Shown: one piece after another, positions 3,312 through 52,627 of the stretch
Layout: each line of letters begins with the position of its first letter
How positions within the stretch are numbered: position 1 is the stretch's first letter
Source: Squalus acanthias
Taxonomy: Eukaryota
DNA length: 64,000 nucleotides
Direction: 5' to 3'
Assembly (NCBI GenBank): GCA_030390025.1
Contig: CM059431.1
Coordinates: 127,474,001 to 127,538,000 of the forward strand
Program-made: the position numbers and the translations under genes
Notes under the pieces: generated by a model
Seen by the model: the letters and a program-made list of their open reading frames with translations, nothing else
Database searches by the model: none
What the model was told of the DNA's origin: nothing

Positions 3312-3313
3312 CG

Positions 3314-14123: not shown

Positions 14124-14681
14124 GCTGCTGGCAGATACCTCCGTTGGGGAAGCGCTCAGTCCAAGCGGGGAGTTGAGAGATAGAAGCTGCAGCACCTCCG
14201 ACTTCGGTAGGCCTGCTAAAAGTGCTGAAAAACCATTTGTACAGAAGTTCTGCCACCTGCAACTGATCCCTGATGAAAGCTCTGTTTTAATGGTGGAGCT
14301 GCAGCTGTGAGGAGGTCACCCACTTGTCAACCTGCCAGGTTTAGCTGGCGTGGTTTAGGAGGGTTGTGGAACACGCTGAAAATGTGGAAAAATAAAGAGG
14401 GCCTGTCAAAATAGGAATATAGAGGCCCTTAACTACTATTTAAGGGTCTTAACTACCTCTCTGGATTGCTGGAGGCGGGACCGAATCGCACCCATCAAAA
14501 CCGCCTCTGGCAAAATTGCGCAGTGGCGGGTTGGAGGCGGGTTCCGAACCTGCACTCAGTTTTTGCTATTTTGCCAACTGTCCCACCTCCAAACCCCCCT
14601 CTTCGGGGCTGGGAAAATCGTCCCCTAAGACTTTTCCTTGATGGAATGGTCATTACATAGCACTTATGTGGTGCCAATGTT

Positions 14682-21733: not shown

Positions 21734-23670
21734 GGCCGCAATTTTGCGCCTGGAGGCGGGATGGTGGTGGGTCCGCTGTTCGGTGGGTTCCGAACCCACT
21801 CCTGGCTCCCGCCGCCCTGCAGTTGAAATTTTCCATTGATTGGCCTCGTTAAGGCCGACGCGCGGGTTCTCCAAGGCAATTGTTGGTGCGGGTCAGCTGC
21901 TCGGTCTGATGAAGCGATGTTGGACTGATTATTTAAAGGGGCCATGTCCCCTCTGCAGATTCATTCCCATTTTGTTCCCTGAAGTGCTGGCTGCTGCAGG
22001 TATGGCAGCGCAAAAACCTAAGGCTGCTCCCCGCTTCGATGAGGACTACCTGCATGCTCTTGTGGAGGGAGTATGAGGACGTAAGGAGGTCCTCTTCCCT
22101 GGAGGCGGAAGGAGGCGGCCTCCTCAGCATACCAAGGCAGCTTGGCTGCAAATTGCTGAGGAGGTCAGCATACGCACCTGGGAGCAGTGTCCAAGAGGTA
22201 TAATGATCTGTAGCATTCAGCAAAAGTGAGTATAGCATCACACTTACCTTCCATCTGCCTCCCATCTCTTCTCATCCCCATCACTCTGCATTGGCAACCT
22301 TCCCCTGCACATCCCAACTCAGTCTAACATCCTATGCACTCTCACCCATCCCTCTCTTCATCTGTACAGAATCACGTCACCATCTTACACCCTTATGCAA
22401 TGCCAACAATTAACAATGCACAGGGAGGGAACTTGGTTTGTGCACATCACTCCTTCATAGTCTCCCTCTAAACATCTATGTCATCCATTCTTTACATTCA
22501 CTCCATCAATCTCTCTCAAACTCCACTTGTGTCCCTCATTACAGGAGAAGAAAGCCCACAATAAAAGGGAGAGGGGGAGGACAGGAGGAGGCCCACCATC
22601 CCTGGCGCACCTAACGAGCGCTGAGGAGGCAGCCCTGGAGATCGTCAGAGGTGCAGAGGAGCTGGAAGTGGGGGACGGAGAGACGGATATAGAACAGCAA
22701 GCTGGTGACAGAATTGATTTCCAACCTTCTGATTTAGCATTCATGAGTGACAAATATGGGAGATGATGTTCATAGAGATTGAGTGCTAAGCATCTGCACA
22801 ATGGGTGCCTTTACTCCCTCACAGGATCATCGAGAGCCCCGCTCCCCATTGTCCAGGAGGAAGAGTAGGAGCATTCCTCAGAAGAACCACCAGCCTCTGA
22901 GGGAGCAACGTCACCAGCATTCAGCGCACACAGCACCAGCGCAGAGACGTACACCTCGGTGGGTAGTTTGCGAGATAGAGTAGTTGTCACCTGGTGAATC
23001 ACAGCTCGCAAGTGAGCAGGAGCAGATGTTGGAGACAGGTACAGCAGTGGAGAGTCCTCGTCGGAGGACGCTGGGCTCTCCCAGCTCTGCTCAGCTGCAT
23101 GTAAACACTGAGCCTCTGGGCCATCCAGAAAGAGAGCGGTGCTGGAGCTTCAGGAACAAGTGCAGGAGGCTCTGAGTGGGTTTGCTTCCATGGTAACTGC
23201 GAGTGTGCAGAGAATGGAGGAGTCCATTTTAAACATTAGCAATGCGGTGGTGAACGCTATGGGTAATCTAGGTGCTGCCATGGAAAGGATGGCAACCTCC
23301 ATGGAGGACCTAGCTCGCCAGACACAAGCCAACATGGTGGCTCTTCTAGATAGATGGGCAGCTATGGAGGATAGAAGGCCATCTATCATGGAGAGGAACC
23401 AGAGGTACATGGACATCCTGGTTATGAGGACTGTCAGGACAGAGATGGGTCCACATGGCCCCACCGATGTGCAGCAAGGTGCTCTCCAGCAACTTGCTAG
23501 CAGTGAAGTGCGGTTGACTGATGAGAGGGACGGTGGTGTTCGAGCACAAGGAAGTGGGGGCACCTCTCCAAGCGCTCACACTCCCTTGCCACTGTCGAGC
23601 ACTCGGTCAGAGCCCCATCTGCCTGAGCCAACAGAGATGGCCGAGTCTGCCCCTGAACAGCCGCAGGTGC
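21734..23670 (+). mobile_element. Harbinger copy 2, truncated; only the Myb/SANT-like gene (from ATG 22002) remains
   Basis: Terminus GGCCGCAATTTT; AAPRFDEDYLHALVEGV, EKKAHNKRERGRTGGGPP, LELQEQVQEAL. Confidence 0.8.
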
Positions 23671-23949
23671 GGGACTTCCTTGTCAACCCCGGTGTCTCCT
23701 TCCTGTACGCGTGGCCTTTCAAACAAAGGACCATGCTGACCACCGGGCAAAGGAGCCCCTACTGACTTCTGCCGTTTTGTGTCTTCACAAACAAAGAACA
23801 CATGCTGACTTCCTACATTTTGAATCCGTCTGTAACCATTTCACAATTCATTCTGAACTTCGATCTGCACACGGTAGCAGGGGTTTTATTACAATTTTTA
23901 GAATCTTACAAATCACAAGGGTTCTCACTTGGGTGTTATGATAGATTTA

Positions 23950-27664: not shown

Positions 27665-29357
27665 TGTAAGGGATTCTGACCCTGCGTGTCTCGCAGCCTG
27701 TGAGATTCACGCGGCTCTGTGCAGCCTGTATGTCAGTGCGGGTCTAGGCCTTGTTGCCTGTTCTGGTCTCCAGCCAGTCTGGGAACACTAGACACACCTG
27801 TGAGTGGTTCGAATCACTCTCCCTTACGGTTCTAGACACTGGACTTAGATGCGAGAGCAGTAATGGAGATGAAACTCATGTAGACTCGGTTTGAATGGTA
27901 CGAAATGGAAAATCTTTATTGCATGATACTTAAGATTATGAAATACATGTCATAAGCACAGATTAATGACAGTACAATCTTACAAACAGTTATATAGTCG
28001 ATCTTAGGGAAACGAGGAACAAACGGCACAAAGTAAATAGGGGCACACATTACAAATATCCTTAATCCTTAAACCCTCCCCTATCAATATCTATCCTAAA
28101 CTAGATTCGTAGGATTTCGAGACTCATGCTCACCACTCGTGATAACTCGGAGAAATTCCGAATAGCTGATCGGATGTTTTTCACCGCAGCACCCACGTGT
28201 CGGTCAGGAGATCTCCTGGTCCCACTTGTTTACTTGCTTCTGCTGCTCCGGCTAGCAGGCTGGACCGTCTGCTGTGATGAAGACCTGTGTTGGTTGGTTT
28301 AACAGGTACTTTTCGAGCACAGTTGTCAATATCGTCGATACGATATGGCTTTCACATTCCAGTTACTTTGGGCACAGTCCAGTTATCATCGATGCAATAT
28401 GTTTCGTTATAAGTTCGAAGAAGTCTTCCTGGCGAGGAAAACTTGGATAATCGACCTACAGGCGCGGTCGGGATTTACTGACCGTGGCGATGGATATGGT
28501 CTTCCTCTCTTCTCATCTCATCTCATCTCATCTCATCTCATCTCGGGCCTTCGGTTCCGCTGCCAGTTACCAACATAGGTCTTCGTTACGCGACACGAGG
28601 TAGATCCGAACGGATCAGAAAGTTCAACAGTCTTTTCAGAAGAGGCAACAGGCAAGCAGGAGCGAGCCCAACTACGAGTACACAGGAGCAGCCACGAGGT
28701 TACGAAATAAGAGCACAGGATAAGAGAGAGCTGGACGGTTTGGAGCCTGCAATTATAGTGCAAAATCTTCCGTTTCCCGCCCAACTATAATGTCCATTCT
28801 TTTGTTTAGGGTTTGGCGCTCAAATGTCTTGTATGGGTGATCTCCGTTCTTAATGGGTTTCGGGGCTACTCGTAAATGTCTGAGTACCTGTTAATATTTC
28901 TCCCATTGTTAAATCGGTCGGTGTTCTCCCTGGAGGGGTTTGGGGCTTCCAAGTGTCCTGTATAACTACCTGCTAACGGCTCTCTCATCGTAGAGTCGTT
29001 GGGATTTTACATATTAATGTCTTTTGGATGGGCCCTTGATTACTCGGTACAATGGCTTTCCTTTGTACCTGGGAGACCGATTTCAGTATCTATGTGTATA
29101 CTGCAAACCCATAATGTCTCGTGTATTATCTTCACTGTGCTGAATCTTAATCGATCTTGCACAAATGTTTATTGGAACGCCATCTTGTCTGCCTGTTGAA
29201 AAGTCTAGAATGTTCTGTCACGAGGTGCGGCGGCCATTTTACAGGCTGCTTGTGTCCACTTTAAACCTGCCAGCATTCTACTGAAATAAAAGCTGTTTCA
29301 CGAAACTTTGTGTTTTTCTCCTTATTATTAAAATCGCGATATATTGCGAATTCTACA
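27665..29357 (-). repeat. 3' LTR
   Basis: Direct repeat of 35436-37128; sense AATAAA at ~27916-27921; internal (CATCT)n at ~28511-28544. Confidence 0.97.
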
Positions 29358-29807: not shown

Positions 29808-32159
29808 TTACACGGTGCTCTCATCGTGCACGCGCACGTAACGTTCTCGCCACTCTCCCGTGTTTTCATGCTTGGTGAGGCGTTTGTCTCTTTTACAATG
29901 TACAACCAATAGGTACACTACAATGAAAACTTGGCATACGACTAAAATGTGGGAGGCTATTCTGATCCATGAAGGTACTTCAATATTGGTGAACAGATTC
30001 CACCACGGTGGAACTACTATATCCAGAATGTCTGTTCCTATTTCGACAGTTTTCTGCTCTAATGTATAAAAATGTTTCTGTGACACCGCGACGGCTTTCA
30101 AAAGCTTGGTGAGGTGTTCAGGGAGAGGGGGAATGAGGTATCCAAAATGCGCGACGAATCGCTGCAAGTCGGTGAAATTCTCTTTTACTGTGAGATGAAC
30201 AGTGGATGGTTCAGGGATTGGGATAATTCGCTGTTGTGCTACTTGAACTTCCGCCCTGGGTTTAAAACAGAAACTGCTGTCACTCACCGGACACCGGCTA
30301 CGGTTTCCATGCTGGTAGTGTTGCGCTGCAGTGGTAACACAATATGTTCCACCCCGATGTATGCTACCTGCGGAGGCACATGATCTTGTGCCATTGCCTC
30401 CATGGTGCAATTCATGGACTTGGCGCCAGCCGTTCTGAACCCGCACTGTGGTGTTAAAAAAGGCATTCAAGTGCTGGGGGCACAGTATTATGTGTGCTCC
30501 CCTGCCACGACAACCAGAGAGATCTGTACCTGTCATCGTTTGCTCCCAGCGGATGACGTAAGGTGGAACCGCTGCGTAACGAATGTGGGCTCCCCCCTGA
30601 ATGACACCAATGTTCTCTACCCGATACACCGGGGCGGGCTTTGCTGTGTCGCCCAAAACCGGCATGCGTAAAACTATACCCATAATAGTATGGTTTGAAC
30701 GTCCGCAGTCCACGGGGACTGGGTAAGCTTCTGAAGCTAGCCTGAGCTGGCACGGACTTAATGCGTTCTGAAAAGGGTGGAGCGCCCGCAGGTGTTTGTT
30801 ACTTATCCAGGACGGAACCAAACCTTGTTTTAAATCCTCCAAATTACTGCGGCCCTCGCCCAGTAACCACGCCCCGTAAAGCACGCACACCTCGTTCTGC
30901 GCAGCTTGATCGGATGCATTCCGATCTTCCCTAATCAGGGCATTTACCGTTTTTGCATGTTTCTCCAGCTCTGCTATAATTTCCTTTAAATGGAGAGTCA
31001 TGGCTTGGTCCTCGTGTAAACCCGACCCTACCACTTTATTCTCATCTGTTAGAATGTCTTTTAATTGTGTCTTTAAACCATTAATCTGGGTCTGCAGCTC
31101 CACACTGTCTAGAGCGTTGACCACAGATGTACCTGTGTTAAAAGCAGTGAACGCATCGTTCACCAAACCCCTTCTTTGCCTCCCTACTTGATCCAAAACT
31201 TCCTGTGGTGCGGTGTACAAACTTGTTTTATCAATTTCCGCGAAATCGAATTCGTAAAATTGTCTGAACATCTTGGTCAACAGGACCTGATACAACTGTT
31301 CCGTCTTTTTGGGGCACCACTCTGGTAACCGCACCTCAGTGAGATTTAAAATCACCGAGGCCACCGCGTAATGTACCCCCTGAAATAGTATCTGGTCTGT
31401 GGGGACCAGTACCAAACCATTCCCGGGTCCCTTCCTAGTTTTAGGGCACCCTTCTTCCTCAGCTAGAACCACCGGAATCGTGGGCGGGGCTTTGCGTGGG
31501 CGCGTAATGAGCTCAGTGGCATTTACTGGGATCGGGGAGAATGGGGCTCCGCACCCCCTGGTGCTCGCATCCCACCTCATCCCCTGTCCGTTATCCTGCC
31601 ATTGATTAATAAAAAATATGGAGATGCCTTTGGGGCAAACGTACTTTGACCCCCACATACATACATAAATTCCCTCATCCGGTTCCCACCATTTGTCCCA
31701 ACAGACTTTCACTTGTCCGTCTGTCCCCGTAATTGTCCGATGGGTATTATTACCCAGTCGTTCCCACTCGACCGAAGAGTTCCTCATAGTTTTGCTCAGC
31801 TTTCGCAGCCACCACCATCGGCTCAATGGGACCTTCCCACTACAAGTCAAACAAATCCGTTTGCCGACGGTGACGCTGATCCTGGGTGCGATGATCCTTA
31901 CTTTGGGGCACAGTAAAGAAGTCTCTTTGTAGGCAAACCCCGATGTGCTGGAATACTCCGTTGAGTTCGTTCCCAGCCATCCTGGCCACCTTCCCTTGTG
32001 GAAATAGGTGCTGGTCTCCTCTGCCTCCCGTCTTCCGGTCCCATCCACCGCGATGGGGGCCGTGTCCCCGGAACATCCAAACACCACGACATCCTTGGTG
32101 CGGCCTCGATAGGCCAATCCACATCCGATTGCCACGAGCAATACTAGAATTCGTTCCAT
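29808..32159 (-). CDS. env: Envelope glycoprotein (783 aa): signal peptide, Ig-like domain, furin site, class I fusion subunit, TM
   Basis: MERILVLLVAIGCGLA signal; RQRR|GLVNDAFTAF cleavage site and fusion peptide at 31170-31181, then a heptad repeat; DLSGC...CPQ Cys-rich region; TM IASHILVVCQVFIVVYLLVV; several N-x-S/T sites. Confidence 0.88.
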   Translation of the reverse strand: MERILVLLVAIGCGLAYRGRTKDVVVFGCSGDTAPIAVDGTGRREAEETSTYFHKGRWPGWLGTNSTEYSSTSGFAYKETSLLCPKVRIIAPRISVTVGKRICLTCSGKVPLSRWWWLRKLSKTMRNSSVEWERLGNNTHRTITGTDGQVKVCWDKWWEPDEGIYVCMWGSKYVCPKGISIFFINQWQDNGQGMRWDASTRGCGAPFSPIPVNATELITRPRKAPPTIPVVLAEEEGCPKTRKGPGNGLVLVPTDQILFQGVHYAVASVILNLTEVRLPEWCPKKTEQLYQVLLTKMFRQFYEFDFAEIDKTSLYTAPQEVLDQVGRQRRGLVNDAFTAFNTGTSVVNALDSVELQTQINGLKTQLKDILTDENKVVGSGLHEDQAMTLHLKEIIAELEKHAKTVNALIREDRNASDQAAQNEVCVLYGAWLLGEGRSNLEDLKQGLVPSWISNKHLRALHPFQNALSPCQLRLASEAYPVPVDCGRSNHTIMGIVLRMPVLGDTAKPAPVYRVENIGVIQGGAHIRYAAVPPYVIRWEQTMTGTDLSGCRGRGAHIILCPQHLNAFFNTTVRVQNGWRQVHELHHGGNGTRSCASAGSIHRGGTYCVTTAAQHYQHGNRSRCPVSDSSFCFKPRAEVQVAQQRIIPIPEPSTVHLTVKENFTDLQRFVAHFGYLIPPLPEHLTKLLKAVAVSQKHFYTLEQKTVEIGTDILDIVVPPWWNLFTNIEVPSWIRIASHILVVCQVFIVVYLLVVHCKRDKRLTKHENTGEWRERYVRVHDESTV

Positions 32160-32364
32160 CTTTCCTTGGTTCCTGTGATCAGATAGAATGAGGTAGCCAG
32201 CCTCGCAAGAGTCTCTGGCTTTTGTGAAGGGTGAGCGGGTCCCCTGACCTCGCCTCACGTAAACTTCAACGTTCGCTGAATAAACTTCAACTAAACCTAT
32301 CTTTAAAGCTCCCATCATTTTATCGTTTTCTGTTAAAAACACTACAAACTTAACCTTAATAAAG

Positions 32365-32497: not shown

Positions 32498-33619
32498 TTA
32501 AATTCTGAGAAGGCTGCTGCGAGCTCTTCCCGACGGTGGGAGGGCACTGACCCTTCCCTCTGATCTGCCGCAGCCTGTTACTGCTGCGATGTGGCCGGTC
32601 TGTATCTGGGTTATCTTAACCTTAAATTTTCGCCTTGGGGCAGTCTGGGGACATGACCACATCCTCCTGGGCTGGGGTTCTCTACTTGACCTACGGGGAG
32701 TTGCTATGGGCGGGGTTTCCGTGACGGACGGACCGGGTTCCGAGACTTCCATCGGGATGACCTGGGGTTCCATCACAGTCGCTGGCTCCGCCTCCGCTGA
32801 CTCCGCCTCCCTAACCTCGGGGCTGGCAGTTCGTGGCTCCGCCCTGCTCGGCCCAGCAGGCGGCCCTTCACTCGTGATCTCTGCCTCCCCCGAGGACTGG
32901 ACGTTCAAAGCGGGCGGCCACATCTCTGGGAGCCACACCGGTACTCTCTGTGCTCCCATAGCGGCTGGCCCTGCCTCCTCTAGCTCCTCCCTCCTGTCTT
33001 CGAGACCTGCAGCTCGTGTGTCCACCCTGTGTGGATCTCTACCTGCAGCCCCCGTCCCCTCCATATCGTAAAAGGGACCGTTCCTCCGAAACCACCCGTC
33101 GTCATCACTATCCTCATCTGCACTATCCTCATCTGACCCGGGTACCCTGAATTCTTCCTCATCTAACCCCCAATTCCAGAAAAACGCTGCATGATCGTCC
33201 GGGATGTCCCTTCCCCTGATGCAAGCTGCTATGCCTGCCTGTGTGCCTTGTGGTCCTACCTGGGGCTGTGCTTTCCCACTGGCGGGATTTACCCCTGTAG
33301 TTTTCCCTTGCGCACCTGGCTTGTACAGTTTGCACTGGTTTGCATCCTCATACTCCCGGCTTTTGGCTACCCTGTAGGCTGCTTTTATCTCTCTAAGCTG
33401 CGCTTCTAGCCTGAGCACGTCTAACTTTCCCATTGATCGGGCGTTCTCCTCCCGCAGGGCCTGCTCTCTAAGCTGCCCTTCCAGCCCATCTATTTTCCCT
33501 ATTAAGCGGGCGTTCTCCTCCCGCAAGGCCTGCTCTTTTAACCTGGCCTCCTCACCGCAGACCCCCTCCTGTGCGTGTCTTTTAAAAGGACACAGGTAGG
33601 CAGGCTGCGTGGGCTCTAG
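32498..33619 (-). CDS. ORF2 in the pol position, in frame after the gag stop; gag-derived coiled coil plus an acidic/Pro-rich region
   Basis: Frame is open from 33619 (LEPTQPAYLCPFKRH...) to the stop at 32498; no enzyme motifs. Confidence 0.75.
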   Translation of the reverse strand, partial: LEPTQPAYLCPFKRHAQEGVCGEEARLKEQALREENARLIGKIDGLEGQLREQALREENARSMGKLDVLRLEAQLREIKAAYRVAKSREYEDANQCKLYKPGAQGKTTGVNPASGKAQPQVGPQGTQAGIAACIRGRDIPDDHAAFFWNWGLDEEEFRVPGSDEDSADEDSDDDGWFRRNGPFYDMEGTGAAGRDPHRVDTRAAGLEDRREELEEAGPAAMGAQRVPVWLPEMWPPALNVQSSGEAEITSEGPPAGPSRAEPRTASPEVREAESAEAEPATVMEPQVIPMEVSEPGPSVTETPPIATPRRSSREPQPRRMWSCPQTAPRRKFKVKITQIQTGHIAAVTGCGRSEGRVSALPPSGRARSSLLRI

Positions 33620-35431
33620 TCATTGGGTACTATTAGACGGTCCTGCGACACCTACGGGGCCGGTTGCGACCGCCACCTGTCCACGCGCATTCAAGACCAG
33701 CTTGCGCATGGCTCCTAACACTGCTTCGAGGTCGTCAGGAGGGGTGGGTGCCTTGGCTTCCTTAGCCGGGACAGGCGCCTGGGCTCGGACCGCGGGATTT
33801 TTATCCTTGGAATCCTTCCAAGGGTTCCTGCAATGCTTGCGCCAGTGCCCTGTCTTCCCACACCCGTAACAAGCATTACTTGCCTGTGGGACGCGATTAC
33901 CCTCCTGATGCCACTCTCTTTGATACGGGGCTGCGGGTCGTACCTCATGTACTCTTCCCTTAAGGGGACGTGTTGCCATACCCCTTATATTGCGATAACC
34001 TAACGTGAGTCGATTCAAGACCGACTCTTCCGTAATGTTGGGGTCATTGGGATCAAACCATGCTTTTGTCTGCTCTCTGACGGCTGGTAAACTGTTGGCT
34101 ATTATGCACCTAAGCCAATGAGTTAAAGCTAAACCTTCCACATCTTCGCGCTCGGGCGCACCTAGACAGCTGCGCTCATATACTGGCCACAGCCTGTCGG
34201 CAAAAACCTTCGGGGGTTCTCCCTCCATCTGCACTGTCTGTCCCACTCTAGCAAACGGACCTTCGTCGTTCGCCCCCAACACTTCCAGGACCTCATTCTT
34301 TAATTCCTCATAACTCTTGGTTCCCCTCTTGCTCTCGCCTGAGAGACACTGAAGGACCGAGCTGTCTAATGAGAACAGCAGCATTTTTGCTGTTTCCCCA
34401 TCATCGCAGCCGTTAATGGCTGCGGCTTGCTCAACTTCTCTGAAATGTACGGAAGGGTCGTCTGCCTCGGTCAGCTTCCGTACGTGATTTATCATAGCTC
34501 TCAGCTGATGTGAACTGTGAGGCAACACCAGCTGTCCGAGGAGATCCCCCGGTTCTTCCCCACCGTTTCTGCTTGGGCCCCTTTTAATACCCGTTACTGG
34601 ATATAACGATCCCTTTCCTACTTCTTTTTCAATGGGCTCTTTTGTTTCTTCCATTGCTTCCTCCCTAACCCAGGTTTCTGAATAGCTGGGTGGCGCGGAG
34701 GGCGCAGTGACTACTACTCCTTCTGCTTTACTTGGTGGGGATTTTCTAAATCTCTCATTTACTAGCGGCTGGTGTGCCGACGGATTGATAAGGCACACCA
34801 TGCCGTTCGCATTGTTCACGGCCTTTTTGAGGTGCTCTATCTCCCTTTGGCAGGCGCTATGATCGGCTCCCTGAAACTTATCCTCAAGGGCCAACTTATA
34901 TGCCGCCCTAACCCCCGTCAAGCTCTCTTCTTGAGTTCTTATCTGGGCAGCTTGGCGGTTACATCTTTCCTTTAACCTGCTCTCATTCAATTTTGCCTCA
35001 GTGACCTGGCACTCGAGATAATCTATCCTTGTTTTAAGGTGACTGGAGACTTCCTGGCTTTCTTGGTGTAACTCATTTAAATTCTTAATGAGCACCTCCC
35101 CTCCAGAAACCTTCTCCTCCATTTCTCCCTCTAAATGACTGATTCGAGCTACTAGCGCTGTAATGGTCTGGTTTGAAATCTGAACCTGCCTTTTGTAACA
35201 CATAAGCCAGACTGCTTTCTCAAGTGTCTTTCTATGTTCTTTACTATCTGTCCACCTTTCAGCTGCCTCTAGTGGGCTCTTATCCGCTAACAATTCACTT
35301 ATCCATTTCTTAGTTAGATTAACCTTTCCAAACACATAATCCGCTATCTTTTCCTGCATAACATTTCGTACAGTCATTCCAAAATCTAACACACTACCCT
35401 CTCGCTGCCAGTGTCCTGCCGCGGTCGCCAT
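33620..35431 (-). CDS. gag: Gag (603 aa) with a coiled coil, capsid-like region and CCHC zinc knuckle
   Basis: CYGCGKTGHWRKHC; QMEGEPPKVFADRL capsid/MHR-like motif; ATG 5 nt after the 5' LTR. Confidence 0.92.
   Translation of the reverse strand: MATAAGHWQREGSVLDFGMTVRNVMQEKIADYVFGKVNLTKKWISELLADKSPLEAAERWTDSKEHRKTLEKAVWLMCYKRQVQISNQTITALVARISHLEGEMEEKVSGGEVLIKNLNELHQESQEVSSHLKTRIDYLECQVTEAKLNESRLKERCNRQAAQIRTQEESLTGVRAAYKLALEDKFQGADHSACQREIEHLKKAVNNANGMVCLINPSAHQPLVNERFRKSPPSKAEGVVVTAPSAPPSYSETWVREEAMEETKEPIEKEVGKGSLYPVTGIKRGPSRNGGEEPGDLLGQLVLPHSSHQLRAMINHVRKLTEADDPSVHFREVEQAAAINGCDDGETAKMLLFSLDSSVLQCLSGESKRGTKSYEELKNEVLEVLGANDEGPFARVGQTVQMEGEPPKVFADRLWPVYERSCLGAPEREDVEGLALTHWLRCIIANSLPAVREQTKAWFDPNDPNITEESVLNRLTLGYRNIRGMATRPLKGRVHEVRPAAPYQREWHQEGNRVPQASNACYGCGKTGHWRKHCRNPWKDSKDKNPAVRAQAPVPAKEAKAPTPPDDLEAVLGAMRKLVLNARGQVAVATGPVGVAGPSNSTQ
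35414..35430 (-). promoter_or_regulatory. Primer-binding site, tRNA-Ser-like, overlapping the gag ATG
   Basis: TGGCGACCGCGGCAGGA 5 nt after the LTR; resembles the complement of tRNA-Ser 3' ends (TGGCG....GGCAGGA). Confidence 0.65.
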
Positions 35432-35435
35432 TTTC

Positions 35436-37128
35436 TGTAAGGGATTCTGACCCTGCGTGTCTCGCAGCCTGTGAGATTCACGCGGCTCTGTGCAGCCTGT
35501 ATGTCAGTGCGGGTCTAGGCCTTGTTGCCTGTTCTGGTCTCCAGCCAGTCTGGGAACACTAGACACACCTGTGAGTGGTTCGAATCGCTCTCCCTTACGG
35601 TTCTAGACACTGGACTTAGATGCGAGAGCAGTAATGGAGATGAAACTCATGTAGACTCGGTTTGAATGGTACGAAATGGAAAATCTTTATTGCATGATAC
35701 TTAAGATTATGAAATACATGTCATAAGCACAGATTAATGACAGTACAATCTTACAAACAGTTATATAGTCGATCTTAGGGAAACGAGGAACAAACGGCAC
35801 AAAGTAAATAGGGGCACACATTACAAATATCCTTAATCCTTAAACCCTCCCCTATCAATATCTATCCTAAACTAGATTCGTAGGATTTCGAGACTCATGC
35901 TCACCACTCGTGATAACTCGGAGAAATTCCGAATAGCTGATCGGATGTTTTTCACCGCAGCACCCACGTGTCGGTCAGGAGATCTCCTGGTCCCACTTGT
36001 TTACTTGCTTCTGCTGCTCCGGCTAGCAGGCTGGACCGTCTGCTGTGATGAAGACCTGTGTTGGTTGGTTTAACAGGTACTTTTCGAGCACAGTTGTCAA
36101 TATCGTCGATACGATATGGCTTTCACATTCCAGTTACTTTGGGCACAGTCCAGTTATCATCGATGCAATATGTTTCGTTATAAGTTCGAAGAAGTCTTCC
36201 TGGCGAGGAAAACTTGGATAATCGACCTACAGGTGCGGTCGGGATTTACTGACCGTGGCGATGGATATGGTCTTCCTCTCTTCTCATCTCATCTCATCTC
36301 ATCTCATCTCATCTCGGGCCTTCGGTTCCGCTGCCAGTTACCAACATAGGTCTTCGTTACGCGACACGAGGTAGATCCGAACGGATCAGAAAGTTCAACA
36401 GTCTTTTCAGAAGAGGCAACAGGCAAGCAGGAGCGAGCCCAACTACGAGTACACAGGAGCAGCCACGAGGTTACGAAATAAGAGCACAGGATAAGAGAGA
36501 GCTGGACGGTTTGGAGCCTGCAATTATAGTGCAAAATCTTCCGTTTCCCGCCCAACTATAATGTCCATTCTTTTGTTTAGGGTTTGGCGCTCAAATGTCT
36601 TGTATGGGTGATCTCCGTTCTTAATGGGTTTCGGGGCTACTCGTAAATGTCTGAGTACCTGTTAATATTTCTCCCATTGTTAAATCGGTCGGTGTTCTCC
36701 CTGGAGGGGTTTGGGGCTTCCAAGTGTCCTGTATAACTACCTGCTAACGGCTCTCTCATCGTAGAGTCGTTGGGATTTTACATATTAATGTCTTTTGGAT
36801 GGGCCCTTGATTACTCGGTACAATGGCTTTCCGTTGTACCTGGGAGACCGATTTCAGTATCTATGTGTATACTGCAAACCCATAATGTCTCGTGTATTAT
36901 CTTCACTGTGCTGAATCTTAATCGATCTTGCACAAATGTTTATTGGAACGCCATCTTGTCTGCCTGTTGAAAAGTCTAGAATGTTCTGTCACGAGGTGCG
37001 GCGGCCATTTTACAGGCTGCTTGTGTCCACTTTAAACCTGCCAGCATTCTACTGAAATAAAAGCTGTTTCACGAAACTTTGTGTTTTTCTCCTTATTATT
37101 AAAATCGCGATATATTGCGAATTCTACA
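35436..37128 (-). repeat. 5' LTR
   Basis: Differs from the 3' LTR at 35587, 36234 and 36833 (by eye). Confidence 0.97.
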
Positions 37129-37750: not shown

Positions 37751-39272
37751 CTAGAAAATAATGGAATAGTGCTATCCATCCCACTAATTAACAGGATGTA
37801 GAATTTTGAGCAGTTTGAAAGGGAATAAAATGGAAGGAGATAGAGAGAAAAAGTTATTTATATTAAAAAATCAAGAATAATCAGAGACATCTCAAGGGAA
37901 ATGCTAGCAAAGCAATTAAAAAATGCTGGAAGGAATAACATTCTTAAGTGTATGAACTTGCAATATTGATGCATTTGAATCAATTTAATTTGTTCTAATT
38001 TACTTTCTGCTTGTGTGCTCCCATTTCTGATCCTCACCCATCAGGAGCTCATATCGGGAAATTGCATACCTTGTAGGGGGTGGTGTGTGGGGTCAGTTTC
38101 ACCTCTGACTCAGTGAGTGGTTTGAATCGCTCCCACGTCCCTGATTCTAGACCTTGGACTTATTTAGGGGTTGTGAACAAAGATGCAGTAGACAGCAGGT
38201 TTTGATGAAAGAATTTTGACTTTATTAACAAGAAAAAGGTAACAAACTTAAAACACACTTAACACTTAAACACAGGTTGGGGAACACGCGGTACAGGCGA
38301 GGGAAATAACATTAGAAGAATACTTCACCCCTCCCAATCCCACTTCACTAGCTAGGTTGGACTCTGGAGAACCAGGGATAATGCTCACCAAACGAATCCT
38401 TGACAGTTTAGAGTTAGGGTTTAGAGTCTTCTGAGTAAAAGGTTTCGTAAGGCCCTTGTTGCCGCGAGGTGTCCGATGGTCACTGAGGCAGTCGCTCTGG
38501 TTTCTTCTTGCGTGTCGGTCTGCTTGTGAAGTTGTTGGCCTTCTTTGTTGAACTTCTTGCTGTAACTCTGCCTCTGTTTAAACTGTCTTCTTCCGAGCTG
38601 TGGAACTGCCTTCTTGCAGAACTGTGGAAACTGCCTTCTGCCTGCTTCTCCTGAACTCTGTAACTCCAGCACTGACTTCTTGCTGAAAACTGGCTTTTCA
38701 ATTTGAACTGCAGAACTGCCTTCTGTTGAACTTGCACCATAACTGTTTGATGGGCCTTCAATTATACTAAATTGAAGTGGCCTTGCCAAAACCAAATCAA
38801 ATCCTGCTCATTGTAAGACCTCGTTAACAGTAACAACTTTACTAAGTGTCAAATGGCTTGCGTCCTGTCGATCTCTTCGGTTGATTACAAGTGATTGGTT
38901 TCGTGTTTTGGGTTTCGAGGCTGGAGTCGGGTTTTTCTATCGAATGGTCCCGAGCGATTTGAATGGTTTTGATGGGTCTGTGATAGGTTTTAATGGGGCC
39001 TGTGTTTTGGGTGGGGCTGCCTTCTCCCAGGGTCTATTGTCCAAATGTTAATGCTTGCTGGGGCTTGAGTGAGGTCATCCCGATTCCCCAGACAATGCAA
39101 TTTAACTGCAATACCCAAAACTGCTATTACAGAGGTCTAAACCATCTCCTGTGCAGCCTTTTCTCCCTTACAGGTCCAGACATGTCTTTTAAAATGCCAA
39201 AACTTGGTCTTTGGTCTTAAATTCCTTATGTTAGGCCCAAATGCATTTTATCACTCTGAGGTAGTTCCAAAG

Positions 39273-40893
39273 TGTAGAGTTTCGCAATTATCGCGATTCA
39301 AAATAACATGAGAGAAGCAGTTTCAATTGATCATTTTTATTAAACAAAATGCTGACGTGGTAATAAAGGACACAGAAGCCTGTAAAATGGCCACCGTGCA
39401 TCGTGGCAGAAGCTTCCAGAGACACAGTGGGCAGACAAGATGGCATCGAATATACATTCAGTATGAGATCGGATGATACTCGGTACACATTGAAAAGGCA
39501 GGATGCAACCCGTTTGCATCCTGAACAATAGCAATGATATAAGTGCTGGAATTGTTTCCTACGCACAGTAAGGATCATTGAACTGGGCCATCGAGAACCC
39601 ATCTAGACACATCAATACACAAATACCCCCCCCGGCTCAACAATGAGAGAGACATTGGCGGGTGATTAAGCCAGTATTCGGGGGGCCCCAAAACCAGTCG
39701 AGGAGACGATTCATACACATCCTGGCTGGCTCAACATAGGAGAAGGTATTAACGGATAGTTGGCCAGTTTCAGGTGTTATCGAAACCCGTTAAGAAGATA
39801 ATCGCCCCATGCTGGGAGTTTTGGGCGCCAAAATCACACAAAGAATAAACGTTTAGATTTGAGCGGGAGATAAGGCCGACAAAACAGTATAACTATAGAG
39901 GACAAATGTCCATCGGTCTCTTGACTCTTGACTCTTGGCTCTGGACTCTTGACTCTCTTCCTGAAGCTCTTCCTGGACTCTTCCTTGACCCTTGGCTCTT
40001 GACTCTTAGCCGTGCTGGTCGATTATTCGAGTGTTGGGTGGAGCTCAATCGGAACGAGCCGCCTCGACAGGGCAAGTAACAGGGTACATCATCCCGAGTG
40101 TCGGTAAACGATGTCCGGACCCGGAGCCCCGAGTGACGAGAAGAAAGATGAGAAGAAAGACGAGAAGAAATTCCACGTGCCGTCACGGTCAGTAAACCCC
40201 GACTGCGCCCGAAGATATAATGACAGAATCCATCTTTGAATTCTACAGACTACGACATGAACCGTTTTCTTTGAATTCTACGGATTACTGCACGATCCGG
40301 TCTGAATCCATCGACCACTTCATGACATCAGGGAATCTGGCTTACCTTTCGCGGGAGCGAGAGTAAACAAGTGGGGTGCAGAAACCCTTACAAACACGTG
40401 ACAGTCAGGCGCTGCAGCAAAACGAGCTGAGTGCCTCACTTTAAATTTCCGAAGTGAGCCGAGTGGTGAGCATGTTTTCCGATCCTACAAATCCAGACGT
40501 AGTTTAGGTATATTAAGGGAGGGTGGTTTTTCTAAGGTTAATGTATAATGTGTTCCCCCTTTTACGATGTGTCGTGTGTTCCCCATTTCCATAGGCCAAG
40601 TTTTATGAACGTGTGTATACTTGTAGTCTCTTTGATCTGCGCCTATGACATGTATTTCATGATTTTAGACGCCATGCAATAAAGATATTCAGTTTGTGCT
40701 ATTCAACCGGGTCTATTTGAGTCTTTCTCTACATTACTGCTCCTTGCATCTAAGTCCAGGTGTCAGAACCGTAAGGGCGAGTGGGTCGAACCACTCACAG
40801 GTGCTTATTGCAAAAGTCTGGGCTGGAGACCAGAGCAAGCAATAGTATAGGCAACGAAGGCCTCACCTCGCACCAGTACCGTGACCCCTTACA
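39273..40893 (+). mobile_element. Solo LTR related to the provirus LTR, inserted in opposite orientation within the second element's LTR
   Basis: Begins TGTAGAGTTTCGCAATTATCGCGAT and ends CCCTTACA, like the sense provirus LTR; flanks AAAG / GAAG; AATAAA at ~40679. Confidence 0.85.
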
Positions 40894-41489
40894 GAAGTCC
40901 TTTTTCCTTAGGTTTTGGGGATCTGCAAATTTTGGAAACCTTACAGTCCCCCCTTCGATACTTTTAGTTCACTACAGTATCGTCCTGGGTGGACAAAATT
41001 CCTGATCCCCGAAAGCCAACCTTCCCCTGTATTACCTAAACTAAAACCCAAACATACATTCCCCTTTAAATGTTGTGTTTCAGGTACATACAGGTAAGAA
41101 TCAATAATACATACACATCCAAGCACGGAGGGGGTCCTACACCCCTACACTACTTGGAAAACTATAGTACATACATAGTAAAATAATACACGATCACAAA
41201 CTTTTTTCATTTTAATGAAAACAAATTGCAATGCTGGTCCCATGCTTTCTCATGTCGGGACCGGAGCACTCTATCCTTTCCCTGCCGATTTCCTTTCTGT
41301 AGGGACACACAAAACAGACAGCCATGTCCCGAGAAGGTTCTCTGGCTGGACAGGTGATCGATTCTCGAGAAACTTTCAAACTTACTCACTAAAATCCTTA
41401 ATTCTTAAAAATCCTAAAACTACCAAACTGTAAAACACTAAAATACATTAAAACTCTGTACATTCGCCGCACGTCTCCGAGCGGCCAGA

Positions 41490-42437
41490 CTAAACCCTGT
41501 TCGGGCTCTGCCTTTTGCTGCTTCTGGGCAGCCGGTAAGGTGGCCTGTACCGCAGGATCCTGAGAGTCCTTCTTCTACAGCATACTGACCCCTTTGGTGT
41601 GGCTGCTTCTGAGTCCCTGTCCTGTCCTGTGGGTTCCTCGCAGCCTGAGACCGTAGGCTGGGGACCCTTCTTGTGTTCTTGGCTCACAGCTGCCTCTGTG
41701 AAACCCTCTCTGCAGGAGGCTGTAGGCTGGAGATCCCTGTCCTCAGACTGATCCCTGACCTTGGGTGTTTCTTTACGGGTTACAACCCTCTTTGGGTGGG
41801 ACCCTTTAAACTGATACACTGGAGACCAGGGTGGTTTAGGCTGTGGTGTGCGGGGAGACCTTCTTAGGACTCTGGCCACTGGGGGAGTGCCTGAGTCCCA
41901 CATAATCGATGGAGTATACCCTTCTGTGATACAAGCCCCTGTCCTCACCGCTGCAGTCTGTGAGTCTGCCACAGCTGCTGGCTGGGGATTTCTATCCTCA
42001 GGCTGTACCTCTTCTAAACCTGTCTCGGGGGCAGGTAACTCTCTGCAGCCTAATGCTGTTGCTCTTGCTGCAGGCTGAGGATTTCTATCCTGTTTTAGTT
42101 TGGGCAACTCTGCTACCATGGCTTGCAACTGCGGGGTGGTGAATTCCCCCGGGGTTGTTAAGCAAACCATCCCTCTGGCTTTGGATAGGGCTTGGGTCAG
42201 ACCTTTTATCCTTTCCTCACAGGGCCCATGGTTTAAATACTAATACCCCCTGCTCCTGGCTACCCTGTAGGCTGCCTTTATGTCTCTAAGCTGCCCCTCT
42301 AACCCGTCTACTTTACCCGTTAAGCAGGCGTTCTCCTCCCGTAAGGCCTGCTCATTTAAACTGGCCTCCTTACGGGAGGTCTTTTCCTGTGCGTGTCTTT
42401 CAAGGGGACACAGGTAGACAGGCTGCGCTGGTTCTAG
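41490..42437 (-). pseudogene. ORF2 homologue of element 2, one premature TAG at 42240-42242
   Basis: LEPAQPVYLCPLERHAQ...EQALREENA...IKAAYRVA...GMVCL, in frame after TGA-CTAG. Confidence 0.8.
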
Positions 42438-42715
42438 TCATAGGTCTGGGTTGTATTGGGCAGATGGGGTCAGAGCACCGGTGGTTGCTGCTACCTTCCC
42501 TGGGCCAGTCAATAGGGTCTTCATGGCGTCCAAAAATGACTTGACCGTGGCGGGAGGGATCCCTGTCTCTGCCTTTTGGGCTGGGGTTGAGGAATTCTTA
42601 CCCTTGTTATCTTTCCAAGGATTCTTAAACTCCTTCCTCCAGTGTCCATCCTTCTCACACCCATAACAGTTAAGCTTTGTGCTGGAAGGGTTATTCCCTT
42701 CCTGATGCCACGTAA
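42438..42715 (-). pseudogene. gag: gag C-terminal remnant of element 2
   Basis: WHQEGN...CYGCEKDGHWRKEFKNPWKD aligns with the first element's gag. Confidence 0.85.
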
Positions 42716-46790: not shown

Positions 46791-49700
46791 GGAGGCGGAT
46801 CAGCTGCTAAAATCGGAAAAAATGGCTTCAGAGAAACAACCCGCCTCCATCCCGCCCCACGCGATTTTCGTGAGTGTCTGTTCAGCTGCTCCCAAACTGA
46901 CCCGACTCCAACCGGAGGGACAGGTAGTTAAGGCAGTTAAGAGCCTGTTAACTCTCTTGATAATTCTATTTTAACAGAGGTTTCCCATTTTCGTGCCTCT
47001 GGCTCCTGTTTCCCGTCTTGTCAGAAACACGCCAGCTTCAAGGAGGCGAGTTGGTGGAGGACATAATCTGTAGTCATTATTGGTGCAGAACTTTAAAAGC
47101 GCTCCTGTAACATGGCTGGCATTCAAATGCAACAACTTTGTTGCTGGAGGTTTGGGATAAGATTTTGCAAATCTACTGACCTTGTGACTGGTCAAGCTGA
47201 CACACATCTGCTGTTTGAACTGATTGGGAATAATTTCAGGCCACTTTGAGTGTGCGCTTGCAAGCTTCTTGCCTCAACTGAAATCTATAACAACGGGATG
47301 GGAACCGTTTACATCCTCTCATCCTGGTCATCAGATTCGGAGGAAGAGCAGCGCGGCTTAGTGCTGCCGGATGAACAAGTGACTCAGCACACAGCCTCCT
47401 TGGAGGAAGATGAAGAGGACGAGGAAGAGGATGAGGAGGAGGACGTGGAGTGACGCCTTGCGGGGCCGGATGTGGCCAACCCAGCAGCAGGCGACCACAT
47501 TGCTGGTTGTCAGGCAAGGGATGCACTCATCCATGCCAGTTTCACATGAGCTTACACTTCAAACACAGGGGTGGCTGGCAGATGGAGATGAAAATAAGGT
47601 CAAGATTCTTCACACACCATACATCATCTGTCCAATAAATGGTGCTTTATGATCACTGTCACCGCCATCATTATAAATGGAATTAGCCCTGAGCCCTCAC
47701 TGTGCAACTTCCATTTCCCAAAACACATAGACCAGAACCTCAACTGCTTGCCATCACTTTTCTTTAATGACATCACAAAAGGAGGACACTCGATAATTTA
47801 CAGCACAATAACACACCCATGTGACTACCCTTGTGACTATTTATGTGTTAACTTCCTCTTACGCGTGCTTCTACGTGGTGCTTCCCCTGGGGCTTCAGCA
47901 GATGTAGAGGCACCTTGCTCACTTTGACGCTGCGCCTGCCTAGACGCCTTTGGCGGGCGTCCTCTGGGTTTGGGAGCCTGGGAGGGCTCCTCCACAGTCT
48001 GCTCTTCCTGCGGCTGTGCAGGGGCTGAGACGGCCATTTCAGTTTGGTGTGGAATCTGGGGCTCTGACCGAGGGCTCCGCAGTGGCATGGGAGTGTGAGC
48101 GCTTGGAGAGCAGCCCACACTTGCTTGTTGCCTGCCACCAACATCCCTCGCATGGGTCAGCCGCACTTCAATGCTAGCAAGTGGCTGGAGAGCACCTTGC
48201 TGCACGTCAGGAGGACCATGAGTATCGTCTCTGTACTGGCAGTCCTCATAAGAAGGACGTCCATGAAGCTCTAATGTCTCTCCTCAATAGATGCCCAACT
48301 CTCCTCCATTGCAGACAATCTATTTTGAAGAGTAACCATGTTTTCGTTAGTCTGGCGACTTATGACTTCCATGGCAGTTGCCACCCTCTTCATGGCGGAA
48401 TGGTCATGCGACATTGCCTCCACAAAGGCAGTGCTCATGTCAGAGATTGTCTCCTCCATTCTCTTCATACTCGCAGTTACCCTGGATGCAAACCCTGTCA
48501 GAGACTCCTGCACTTGTTCCTGGAGTTCCAGCACCGCTCTCTTTCTGGATGGCCCCAGAGGCACAGCGTCCACATGCAGCTGAGCAGAGCTAGGAGCGCC
48601 CTGCGACCTCTGACGAGGACTCTACACTGCTGTCGCTGATGCTCACTTGTGAACTGTGATACACCAGGTGACAACACTACTCTATCTCGCGAAGGCCCCG
48701 CCAAGGTGTGCATTGCTGCGCTGGTGCTGGGTGCGCTGGTGCTGGTGACGCTGCTCCCTCAGCGGCTGTAGGTTCCTCTGAGGAGTTGTCCAGCTCTTCC
48801 ACCTGGACAGTGGGGAGGGGGACTCTCGATGGTCCTGTGGGAGAGTAAAGGCATGAGTTAGACATCTGATTTTTAGGTAGCAGACACATCCTATTGTGCA
48901 GATGATCAGAAGTCAATCTCTATGAGCATCATATGCCATTGCAGTCAATCATGAATTGTAATTGCGAGGGATGAAAATGCATTCTGTCACCGGCTTCCTC
49001 AACTGCACCCATCTCTCCGCCCCCCACTTCCAGCTCCTCGCCACCTCCCACGATGTCGTGAGCAGCCTCCTCAGCGTTTGTTAGTGTGGCCAGGGATGGT
49101 GTGCTTCCTCCTGTCTTTGATCTCTCCCTCTTATTGTGGAATATCTTTACCTGCATGGAGGGACACAAGTGGAGTTTCAGCGAGAGTGATGGAGTGAGTG
49201 TGAAGAATCCAAAACCTAGAAGCTTAGAGGGAGACGAAGATGGAGTGAGGTGGCAAGAGGAAGCTGCCTCCCTGTGCGTTGTTAGTTGTTGTCATTGCAT
49301 AACAGTGAGAACAAGTTTGAGGGGTGCATAGTAGAATAGTGAAGTGATTCAGTACAGAGAGAGAGATAGAGAGGTAAGGGTGCAAGGGAAGTAAGGGTAA
49401 GGTGGGATTTGGAGGAGCAGGCTGACAATGCAGAGTGCTGGTGATGAGAAGAGTAGGGAAGCAGTTTGAAGGTAAGTGTGATGTGATACTCACTTTTGAT
49501 GTTCGCACAAGATCATTGAAGCGTTTTCTGCACTGTACCCAGGTGCATGTACATAGCGACCTTACGCTTACAACCTCAGCAATCTGCAGCCAGGCTGCCT
49601 TTGTCTGATGAGGAGGCTTCCTCCGGCCATCGGCAGGGAACAGAATCTCCCTGCGTCCTCTTACTCCCTGCACAAGAGCTTGCAGGGACTCCTCAGTGAA

Positions 49701-50004
49701 TTGGGGAGCAGCCTTGGATTTTGCAGCACTCATGGTCACCTTGGCCCATTCAAGAAGCAGCAGTGAAGAGAAATGAGAGGCTGAGGCTACATGGAGGCCT
49801 TAAAAACAAGTGCAGCAATGACCTCATCAGTGCAGACCAACAGACCCGCTCCCAGGCAATTCAGCAGGCAGTGCGCACGATGGAACTAATTGATCCCATT
49901 AAGCAAAAACGGGACACAGGGAGCGGCAGAAACCGGCAGCGGGTCCAAAACCCGCCCACCAGGAAGCCCGCCCTCAACCCGCCTCCATGTGTAAAATCGG
50001 GGCC
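46546..50004. mobile_element. Harbinger copy 3; transposase core deleted, Myb/SANT-like gene at 47837-49733 (-)
   Basis: Termini GGGCTTGATTTTA / TAAAATCGGGGCC; AAPQFTEESLQALVQGV...QCRKRFNDL; transposase stub at 47298-47550. Confidence 0.85.
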
Positions 50005-50489
50005 AGGGTGTTCCTTCACTATAATTCATCCACTATGTGAGGGGCAAAGTTACTTACCTTAGGAGGCGCTGGAAAAGCACAGAAATACACTTGGCCAGAG
50101 TTTGGCTGGAATATTTCACAAATACAGGGCTGATAGGAGTTGAGGTCTATTCATCCGAGCCATTTGAGGTGTAGACTGCAAATGACGTGGAAACTGAAGA
50201 CAAACAGTATGAGGAAATGGAGGCCAGAGCACTGCAAAGAAGAGTGGGCTTTGCCAAACCAGCACAATCCGCTGCAGAAGTCACAAATAGAGTGGCCCAG
50301 GCTAGCCTCTCTCACCTGAGCAGAGTCTGGGGGCAATGTGATTTTAGGTTGAGGACATGTTGGGCTCAGCTCGAGCACAGCAAAGGCATGCAAAGCAGTA
50401 ACAGCAAATGATCTCTAGTGTTTGATCAGCTGAAAAGGTGAGATATAGAAGTCAAAGGGAATTGGAGGACGTGCAGAGCCTGCTCCTCC

Positions 50490-51640
50490 TTTCAATAAGA
50501 TCATGGCTGATCTTCTACCTTAACTCCACCTTCCCGCACTATCCCCATATCCCTTGATTCCCTTAATATCCAAAAATTTGTTGATCTCTGTCTTGAATAT
50601 ACTCAACAACTGAGCCTCCACAGCCCTCTGGAGTAGAGAATTCCAAAGATTCACAACTCTTTGAGTGAAGAAATGTCTCCTCATCTCAGTCCTAAATGGC
50701 CAACCACTTATTCTGAGACTGTGAGCCCTAGTTCTAGACTCCCCAGCCAGGAGAAACATCCTCCCAGCATCTACCCTGTCAAGTCCTGTAAGAATTTTAT
50801 ATGTTTCAATGAGATCACCTCTCATTCTTCTAAATTCTAGGGAATATAGGCCCAGTCTCCTCAATCTCTCCTCATATTAGAACCCCCCCCCCCCATCCCA
50901 GGAATCAGTCTGGTGAACCTTCATTGCACTCCCTCTATGGCAAGTATATCATTCCTTTGGTAAGGAGATCAAAACTATACACAGTATTCTAAGTGTGGCC
51001 GCAACAAGGCCCTATATAATTGCAGTAAGACTTCTTTACTCTTATACTTCCATCCTTTTGTAATAAAGGCTAACATATCATTTGTTTTCCTAATTGCTTG
51101 CTGTACTTGCATGTTAACTTTCAGTGATTCGTGTACAAGGATACCCGGGTCCCTCTGAATAACAATATTTCCCAATCTCTCACCATTCAAAAAATATTCT
51201 GCTTTTCTATTTTTCCTACCAAAGTGGATAACTTCACATTTCTCCACATTATATTCCATCTACCGTGCTCTTGCCCACTCACTTAACCTGTCTATATCCC
51301 TTTGCAGCCTCTTTGCATCCTCCTCACACCTTACTTTCCCACCTAGCTTTGTATCATCAGCAAACTTGGATATATTACACTCGGTCCCCTCACCTGTCAT
51401 TGATGTAAATTGTGAATAGCTGAGGCCCAAACACTGATCCTTGCAGTTTCCCCACTAGTTACTGCCTGCCAACCCAAAAATGACCCGTTTATTCCTACTC
51501 TCTGTTTTTTGTCCATTAATCAATCCTTAATCAATGCTAACATATTACCCCCAATCCCATGAGCCCTAATTTTGAGTAGTAACCTCTTGTGTGGCACCTC
51601 AGAAATTCTTTTTGATAATCCAAATACACCACATCCACTT
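50490..51640 (-). mobile_element. CR1 LINE 3' part, decayed
   Basis: MEYNVEKCEVIHFG, RPHLEYCV, LYSLEFRRMRGDLIE. Confidence 0.88.
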
Positions 51641-52627
51641 AGAGCTTTATAAATTAGGGCCCCTTGTCCTAGAAATGACTTAGAAAAACTCGTACTGAGA
51701 GTGGGATTCAGGAAAAGTAATCCATTTATGAAGCTGGTTTATTTTCAGAGGCAGAAAAATGGAAATAGGTTAGATTTTTCTTTTATCAAATTAAGGGAAT
51801 GTCACTTGAAACGAATAAGATTTAACAGACCTATTGATGCTGCATAACTATGTTGAATCTCCAGATGTATTGTACTCTACTGCAATCATAAAAACTAAAA
51901 AGATATTTGTTCTCAAATAGTTGGATCCAAACCAAGAGATAATAGAGTAAAATAATGCATATTTTTCAAAAACTAATGTACACGTAAAAAAATTAGCATT
52001 TTGAACATTGTAACACTGTCTCTTTTTCCAGACTATAATTAAAATGCAATCAGACAAAAATAAGATAGAAAAAATTATAATGGCCGGAATTTACCGGCTG
52101 CTATGCGTGCGGGATTGGAGGCGGGTCAGGAGTGAAAATTCAAATAAATCGGAGCGGGAACCGGCTATCATCCTGCCTCCTCACGCCTTTTACTCGGGCC
52201 TTTGCCTTGGGACTCGGCAGCGACCCGAACGGCAGAAGTGGCCGACCTAATTTAGATCATTATTAGGTTGTTGTCAGACCCTTAAGCGTCCATTTAACCC
52301 TACCTTTGAAATTTCACTGCATGACCACGGGAATCACGCAGCTCAGGATCCAAGTCTGCAAACCTGAGGCGGAAGTTCAGTGGCCATTGATGGAACTCAT
52401 TACTGCAGAGCATGGAAAGCACAATAAATACTCCCACCTGACACCGGGTTACTTTCCTAAGGCAGATGCTGTTGCTGAGTGCATTGTCAGCACAGATTTA
52501 GCTTTCTAGAGGTTGGAAGTGTTTTCAGCAAATTTGGGAACTGCTGTCACCTCATTGCTATAACCTATCACACCATTGACAGATTACTTCTCTCATCTCT
52601 ACTTGACCTGCCATCTATTACATCAGC

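Follow-up and report, generated by a model that had tools for sequence, protein, structure and literature searches.

A stretch of 64,000 nucleotides of the Squalus acanthias genome (GenBank assembly GCA_030390025.1, contig CM059431.1, positions 127,474,001 to 127,538,000), referred to below as the window, carries on its minus strand a complete provirus-like element in the order long terminal repeat (LTR)-gag-ORF2-env-LTR, without pol (Table 1). Its gag gene ends in a TGA-CTAG stop, behind which a second open reading frame (ORF2) continues in the same frame. We found that this stop marks the ancestral boundary of gag and pol in a large endogenous retrovirus (ERV) family and was inherited by a lineage that lacks pol.

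A sequence-only reading of the window had described gag as ending in ACC CAA TGA CTA GAG with the frame open for 373 more codons. This is correct: the stop occupies 33622-33620, the sense codons 33619-32501 and the terminating TAA 32500-32498, and the other two frames contain 19 stops each over the same stretch. The size then given for a Gag-ORF2 fusion, about 977 amino acids, was also reproduced (603 codons from the ATG at 35431, the stop and 373 codons), with the caveat that this first in-frame ATG is overlapped by the primer-binding site and that Met 19 or Met 25 are alternative starts. A diverged second element shares the junction, as had been noted (CTA TGA CTA GAA at 42443-42432, minus strand). 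In this element the frame after the junction stops at codon 66, and just 123 gag codons are open.

Table 1. Features of the provirus and of the second junction (window positions)
Feature	Position	Strand	Remarks
5' LTR	35436..37128	-	1,693 bp, TG...CA ends; differs from the 3' LTR at 3 sites
Primer-binding site, complementary to tRNA-Arg(TCG)	35413..35430	-	follows the 5' LTR; from sequence
gag, 603 codons	33620..35431	-	N-terminal half coiled coil; a likely capsid region; single CCHC knuckle
TGA-CTAG, stop at the family's gag/pol junction and probable site of readthrough	33616..33622	-	from sequence and relatives
ORF2 codons 1-12, pol start (protease N-terminus)	33584..33619	-	comparison with pol-type loci
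7-bp hairpin CCTGTGT/GCACAGG, 15-nt loop	33568..33596	-	found in ORF2-type copies; in pol-type copies, missing or rich in wobble pairs
ORF2 codons 13-93, gag-like cassette (similar to the last part of the Gag coiled coil) that contains a tandem duplication	33341..33583	-	replaces ~1,205 pol codons
ORF2 codons 94-373 and stop, tail rich in Pro/Glu/Gly/Ala, located in pol after the integrase SH3 domain	32498..33340	-	same frame, same stop
env-like ORF, 784 aa from the ATG chosen here	29808..32162	-	RQRR cleavage motif, C-terminal hydrophobic helix
3' LTR	27665..29357	-	pairs with the 5' LTR
Junction of the second copy	42432..42443	-	truncated, env-less member of a second ORF2-type family; gag ~45% identical in amino acids

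The gag stop across the genome

A search of the genome with a skate gag led to loci in which the same stop is in frame with protease, reverse transcriptase (RT), tether, RNase H and integrase, followed by env. In the frame downstream of the stop in these pol-type loci, Pfam identified protease (RVP), RT (RVT_1), two RNase H folds (RT_RNaseH and RNase_H) and integrase. In the mapped loci a single in-frame stop sits between the nucleocapsid zinc knuckle and the protease active site. The sequence-only reading had suggested looking for TGA-CTAG at the gag/pol boundary of autonomous relatives: TGA-CTA-R precedes an LDTGA protease in the same frame at all 35 mapped pol-type loci, as CTAG in 25 and as CTAA in the other 10. 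Thirty loci retrieved by the gag query alone comprised 16 pol-type loci (11 CTAA, 5 CTAG), 13 ORF2-type loci with TGA-CTGG and one, L165 (G000:C2), in which a small deletion has removed the stop and gag is out of frame with ORF2. Twenty further loci were picked among the first 100 genome-wide matches for anchor variants not seen before; all 20 are pol-type with TGACTAG, and 12 of them have frames open over 1,494-1,511 codons whose C-terminal residues are identical or almost identical to those of ORF2.

Genome-wide, a junction pattern anchored downstream of the stop (reversed-pattern controls gave 0 matches) found 3,188 sites, among which TGACTAG accounts for 2,918, TGACTAA for 95, TGACTGG for 94 and other sequences for 81; the junction is thus conserved across copies, as the sequence-only reading had supposed. 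Exact patterns assigned 2,056 junctions to the pol type and 1,133 to the ORF2 type, that is, to copies with the cassette described below. One ORF2 subfamily carries TGA-CTGG (13 of 13 mapped loci). Two other sets of loci gave TGACTAG counts of 30/30 and 27/30, which are biased, because those loci were retrieved with queries that included the junction. Since pol-bearing relatives carry the same stop in frame with protease, RT, RNase H and integrase, and since the great majority of sites are TGACTAG, TGA-CTAG is the gag/pol junction of the family. The pol-less copies must borrow their enzymes.

The sequence-only reading had noted a downstream segment in both elements that can form a stem-loop. 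The stem exists, CCTGTGT/GCACAGG folding in both, but a role as the conserved readthrough signal is not supported: its first base is the 24th nucleotide after the stop, it is weak, and pol-type loci show wobble-rich pairing at best at its position. The hairpin is a feature of the cassette and not the ancestral signal. It is intact in 70 of the 73 mapped ORF2-type loci (30/30, 27/30 and 13/13 for the three families) and nearly invariant. Compared with shuffled sequences, the two window copies fold no better over 83 nt (z -1.2 and -0.5) and reach z -2.5 and -3.0 over 123 nt, further helices contributing; a third-family ORF2-type copy folds at z -1.0. Pseudoknot-free folding revealed no stimulatory stem within a few nucleotides of the stop, and the folds of two pol-type junctions did not exceed those of shuffled sequences in stability (z 1.2 and 0.2).

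In another ERV lineage of this genome (L136:3897-3960 and L140:3847-3910) an in-frame TGA is also present at gag/pol (TGA-CAG and TGA-CTAG), with a common GGCCCCC...GGGGGCC stem about 7-8 nt past the TGA (whole-fragment z 0.1 and -0.8), which is a more plausible structural stimulator of readthrough than the 7-bp hairpin. In a third lineage (L131-L133, L137 and L139) gag and pol are separated by an in-frame TGA-CGC. Junctions of the UGA-C kind are found repeatedly among unrelated ERVs of S. acanthias.

Composition and history of ORF2

The sequence-only reading had called ORF2 non-enzymatic, and Pfam indeed detected no pol enzyme domain in the window provirus, ORF2 included. However, ORF2 is not an independent gene, as 75% of it is pol's own tail. 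An origin as a captured host or accessory gene was rejected, given that ORF2 consists of a pol tail and a gag-like piece. The tail has 50% amino acid identity to an older pol-type copy and 97-98% DNA identity to the closest pol-type loci; in one pol-type copy it begins at pol codon 1,218, and therefore the 81 cassette codons stand in for about 1,205. The ratio of nonsynonymous to synonymous substitution rates (dN/dS) of this 280-residue tail is about 0.99-1.0 even in pol-bearing copies, yet its frame and end are kept. Frog and coelacanth relatives end right after the SH3 domain, and the tail is absent from the four pols with a visible end. ORF2 is open over 369-386 codons in 25 of 30 loci of family 1.

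The likeness of the cassette to the Gag coiled coil is clear for the longer cassettes of family 2 and family 4 (about 34% amino acid identity over 73 residues, E 1e-7 to 1e-10), and a further match reached E 6e-6; the window ORF2 had no significant match to its own gag (E 2.5). The closest pol-type loci, 3 of the 20 picked, are 99% identical to the window copy in the DNA of gag and of the env start, but over the 35 nt that begin with the stop identity drops to 83-86%, and nothing in these loci matches the cassette. Between the three ORF2 families the cassette is 85-96% identical, whereas their gag 3' ends are 61-77% identical. On both counts the cassette predates the backbone that now carries it and was transferred from lineage to lineage. 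Contigs from other organisms break off at 33341 and 33588, the cassette edges. Recombination with co-packaged helper genomes would most simply account for the transfer of the cassette to new backbones. By eye, likeness to pol DNA seems to continue to about codon 20 at window positions 33555-33575, shifted by one base; the cassette may have entered the readthrough frame through a one-base gain.

Readthrough, selection and rival explanations

Efficient readthrough at UGA-CUAG in reporter assays (PMC4132726) agrees with the description of this stop in the sequence-only reading as a leaky context. In the portions of that source relevant here, such readthrough is described for alphaviruses and for the vertebrate genes OPRL1, OPRK1, AQP4, MAPK10 and MDH1, with values for genes from about 3.5% to 31% that vary with the flanks. 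The identical 7-nt context is present at the 2,918 TGACTAG sites counted above; unlike those examples, the setting here is retroviral. As the sections of PMC13517186 on gag-pol expression describe, gammaretroviruses, epsilonretroviruses and several unclassified fish and frog retroviruses make pol through a stop between the knuckle and the DTGA motif. The present family resembles them in that a stop separates the zinc knuckle of Gag from the DTGA motif of the protease without a change of frame, UGA being the stop in SSSV, ZFERV and RMEV (PMC13517186). It differs in that the hexamers reviewed in those sections (UGAAGA, UGACGA, UGAAGU and UAGGGC; PMC13517186) do not include UGACUA, that no near stem was found by pseudoknot-free folding, and that the signal here also precedes an enzyme-less frame.

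We therefore consider readthrough in the pol-bearing copies very probable, and the production of some Gag-ORF2 fusion by pol-less copies probable. The explanation that we favor, with some reserve, is that an inherited gag/pol stop persists in a pol-less satellite lineage and is likely read through at a low rate. Ribosomes would occasionally pass TGA-CTAG into ORF2 and yield the fusion, with the UGA-CUAG context rather than the 7-bp hairpin as the main driver. The open frame may have been retained because its translation, or the coil that it adds to Gag, aids packaging or copying of the defective RNA; the exact amino acids of ORF2 would be of little importance. One point against this explanation is that a gag-UGA-pol junction need not suffice for readthrough, as the relevant part of the work on Tca2 indicates (PMC2194720). 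A search of a protein database for longer Gag-Pol fusions found none, which is weak evidence. Of 14 sequencing runs, 8 are RNA by guess only, and contigs of 8 runs span the junction, a kind of data that cannot reveal readthrough.

A different way of expressing pol and ORF2, from a spliced or internally initiated mRNA, appears highly improbable. What speaks for it is a long LTR and an RT that falls into a deep lineage of the retroviruses; foamy-virus pol is made from a separate spliced mRNA and not by readthrough. A junction promoter has a precedent in Tca2, according to the same part of that work (PMC2194720). However, the stop is strictly in frame and has a textbook leaky context, no Met precedes the protease strand (the first pol Met is codon 24), the first Met of ORF2 differs between families, and no splice-type ends were seen among the 15 of 28 joints listed from runs taken to be RNA by guess only.

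Some observations favor selection on the fusion. Four joints between non-homologous segments are all in frame, for which the chance is about 1 in 81: from the pol start into the coil, from the coil into a fragment of the capsid start, from this fragment into the tail and, in family 1, once more from coil into tail; one of them was judged by eye. Indels in ORF2 common to several copies are mostly in frame (10 vs 2 frameshifts), in contrast to private indels (15 vs 24) and a non-coding control (1 vs 7; Fisher p 0.009 and 0.005 for the contrasts). Three rearrangements at the cassette 3' end in other runs have lengths that are multiples of three, among those listed. The selective argument is weakened by other results. 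The contrast between the indel classes is overstated: variants of 12 and 39 nt equal the length gaps between pol-type frames (1,494, 1,507 and 1,511 codons), and a 171-nt ORF2 deletion also occurs in pol-type tails, so that these variants may derive from helpers; in addition, a single event may have been counted twice through the binning. In the cassette, 12 synonymous and 28-29 non-synonymous substitutions are shared between copies (dN/dS 0.90-0.91, p 0.44), against a dN/dS of 0.19 for protease by the same method and 0.11 for integrase; the cassette and protease sets held 68 and 34 copies, four neighboring duplicates being excluded. Pairwise medians of 0.53-0.65 rest on 3-10 synonymous changes (p 0.14). 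Family-1 ORF2 gave 0.68 (p 0.23), whereas the signal in gag was clear (p 1e-4); large rearrangements in L024, L019 and L012 inflated the single-copy gag counts. The tail is near neutral (0.99) even where pol is present, and the TGA-CTGG subfamily multiplied too. Thus, it is the reading frame that seems to be protected, not the amino acid sequence. A slight advantage of translating ORF2, or of a coil with loose sequence requirements, would be consistent with this, by analogy with the mouse intracisternal A-particle (IAP) element 1-delta-1. The earlier suggestion that the signal was kept in order to make the fusion is not upheld: with 99% identity in gag to the nearest copies that bear pol, the stop context is explained by inheritance alone, and ORF2 gives no significant sign of amino acid constraint.

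A passive origin is accordingly a strong rival to a selected fusion, although we regard it as the less probable of the two. Readthrough would serve the pol-bearing helpers alone; the pol-less lineage would have inherited the stop context and the tail recently, any fusion would be a harmless by-product, and the open frame would reflect luck and repeated refreshment from helpers. The closeness of helpers in gag and tail, the near-neutral cassette and tail, the probable origin of several in-frame indels in pol-type tails and the tolerance of the CTGG variant all agree with this. What it explains less well is that four non-homologous joints are in frame, that the cassette predates its backbone and is found on three gag lineages, and that 40-41 shared cassette changes include no in-frame stop (a weak point, as 1-2 would be expected). 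Moreover, the 2,056 and 1,133 junctions of the two types make up about all of the 3,188 sites, and therefore copies that lost the pol start in some other way did not multiply. A stronger form of selection seems to us rather unlikely: the cassette would be a portable replacement for pol in at least three gag lineages, using the readthrough slot to make a Gag fusion with a second coiled coil that co-assembles and steers helper enzymes or packaging to the defective genome. Still less likely is selection on the cassette as RNA, its hairpins aiding dimerization, packaging, stability or the template switches that move it, with the frame incidental. The stem preserved in all three families, the 123-nt folds of the window copies and the near-neutral protein evolution would suit such a role; however, the stem shows no covariation because it is nearly invariant, the third-family copy folds weakly, and an RNA element does not require in-frame joints.

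Placement of the provirus and its precedents

The LTR pair of the window provirus has 3 mismatches in 1,692 aligned columns and is flanked by a 4-bp target duplication (ACAC); the insertion is therefore young, about 1-4 million years old by LTR divergence at rates of 1e-9 to 2.2e-10 per site and year, the slower rate being one given in PMC4422223. The tRNA end complementary to the primer-binding site has 422 genomic matches, and ARAGORN called tRNA-Arg tcg at 2 of 2 loci. The zinc knuckle of gag is a weak Pfam match (zf-CCHC, E 0.3), and gag includes a likely capsid region. Relatives of gag are present in skate, catshark, horn shark and whale shark. Env is 84-91% identical in amino acids to env of pol-type loci; a comparison with paramyxovirus F (PF00523) gave no Pfam or PDB sequence match, and a single-sequence model with a predicted local distance difference test score of only 33 was unusable. 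A weak immunoglobulin-domain match (Ig_3, E 0.5) precedes its long helical fusion-like part. Family-1 proviruses occur in tandem arrays with one common LTR at a spacing of about 7.7 kb (G000:C11:50289729-50300968), with like spacing on C7, C352 and C1. Between the two elements of the window (38080-40900) there are, by eye, two more family-related LTR-like stretches, one on the opposite strand. Elsewhere in the window lie two inverted, 99% identical copies of a GIY-YIG/RT element (1493-4901), presumably of Penelope type, and several copies of a two-ORF DNA transposon (10900-14200, 22200-23700, 47800-55800 and 61300-64000) that we take to be Harbinger-like, with a Myb/SANT-like protein and a DDE nuclease.

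The RT-connection region shares about 50% of its residues with ERV proteins of frogs and coelacanth, and RT groups with these proteins inside the retroviruses (support 96/93). A dual RNase H pol, a coiled-coil gag and an RXXR env are features in common with the snakehead-retrovirus (SnRV) clade, deep frog and coelacanth ERVs and lokiretroviruses, as far as the consulted parts of the respective papers describe them (PMC7947760, PMC4422223, PMC12193657). The tether and RNase H in pol, although also seen in lokiretroviruses, are not diagnostic because all retroviruses share them. Two anchor proteins were assigned by eye, according to motifs given in the PMC7947760 supplement. Grouping of RT with the Loki-like one, P0179, was rejected by the approximately unbiased (AU) test (p 0.04, with this one anchor only), and on the RT trees a lokiretrovirus identity was dropped. 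P0162, which has SnRV motifs, fell outside the RT clade in both trees, but a joint grouping was not rejected (AU p 0.115). In the supplement rows of the lokiretrovirus paper, 0 of 6 cartilaginous-fish genomes are positive. We found no paper on this retrovirus family or its junction in open-access full text; the family may already have a name (for example, in Repbase).

By analogy, the closest precedent is mouse IAP 1-delta-1. As described in the pertinent part of PMC6466679, that element is non-autonomous and very successful, with an internally deleted pol, an in-frame gag-pol remnant and enzymes supplied in trans. An element of this kind has its enzyme genes deleted and a helper family present, and both are true here. 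On the other hand, IAP 1-delta-1 has one continuous fusion ORF and acts in cis, according to the same part of PMC6466679. In the Squalus element gag is whole, the remnant lies behind a leaky stop with the frame continuous only through the TGA, a gag-like cassette has been inserted and env is kept.

The readthrough mechanism itself is known; what is new is the UGA-CUAG context at a retroviral gag/pol junction, counted genome-wide. A context tied to alphaviruses and vertebrate genes in the consulted part of PMC4132726 is now extended to retroviral gag/pol junctions, and about 3,000 natural junction copies with two natural variants (CTAA and CTGG) constitute clean reporter material. If the fusion is not selected, the pol-less lineage would be an ordinary deletion derivative. 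If it is selected, this would be the second defective provirus, after mouse IAP 1-delta-1, to favor itself through a pol remnant, here dosed by a leaky stop; and should the cassette prove to be portable in the sense outlined above, this would be a satellite strategy that relies on programmed readthrough.

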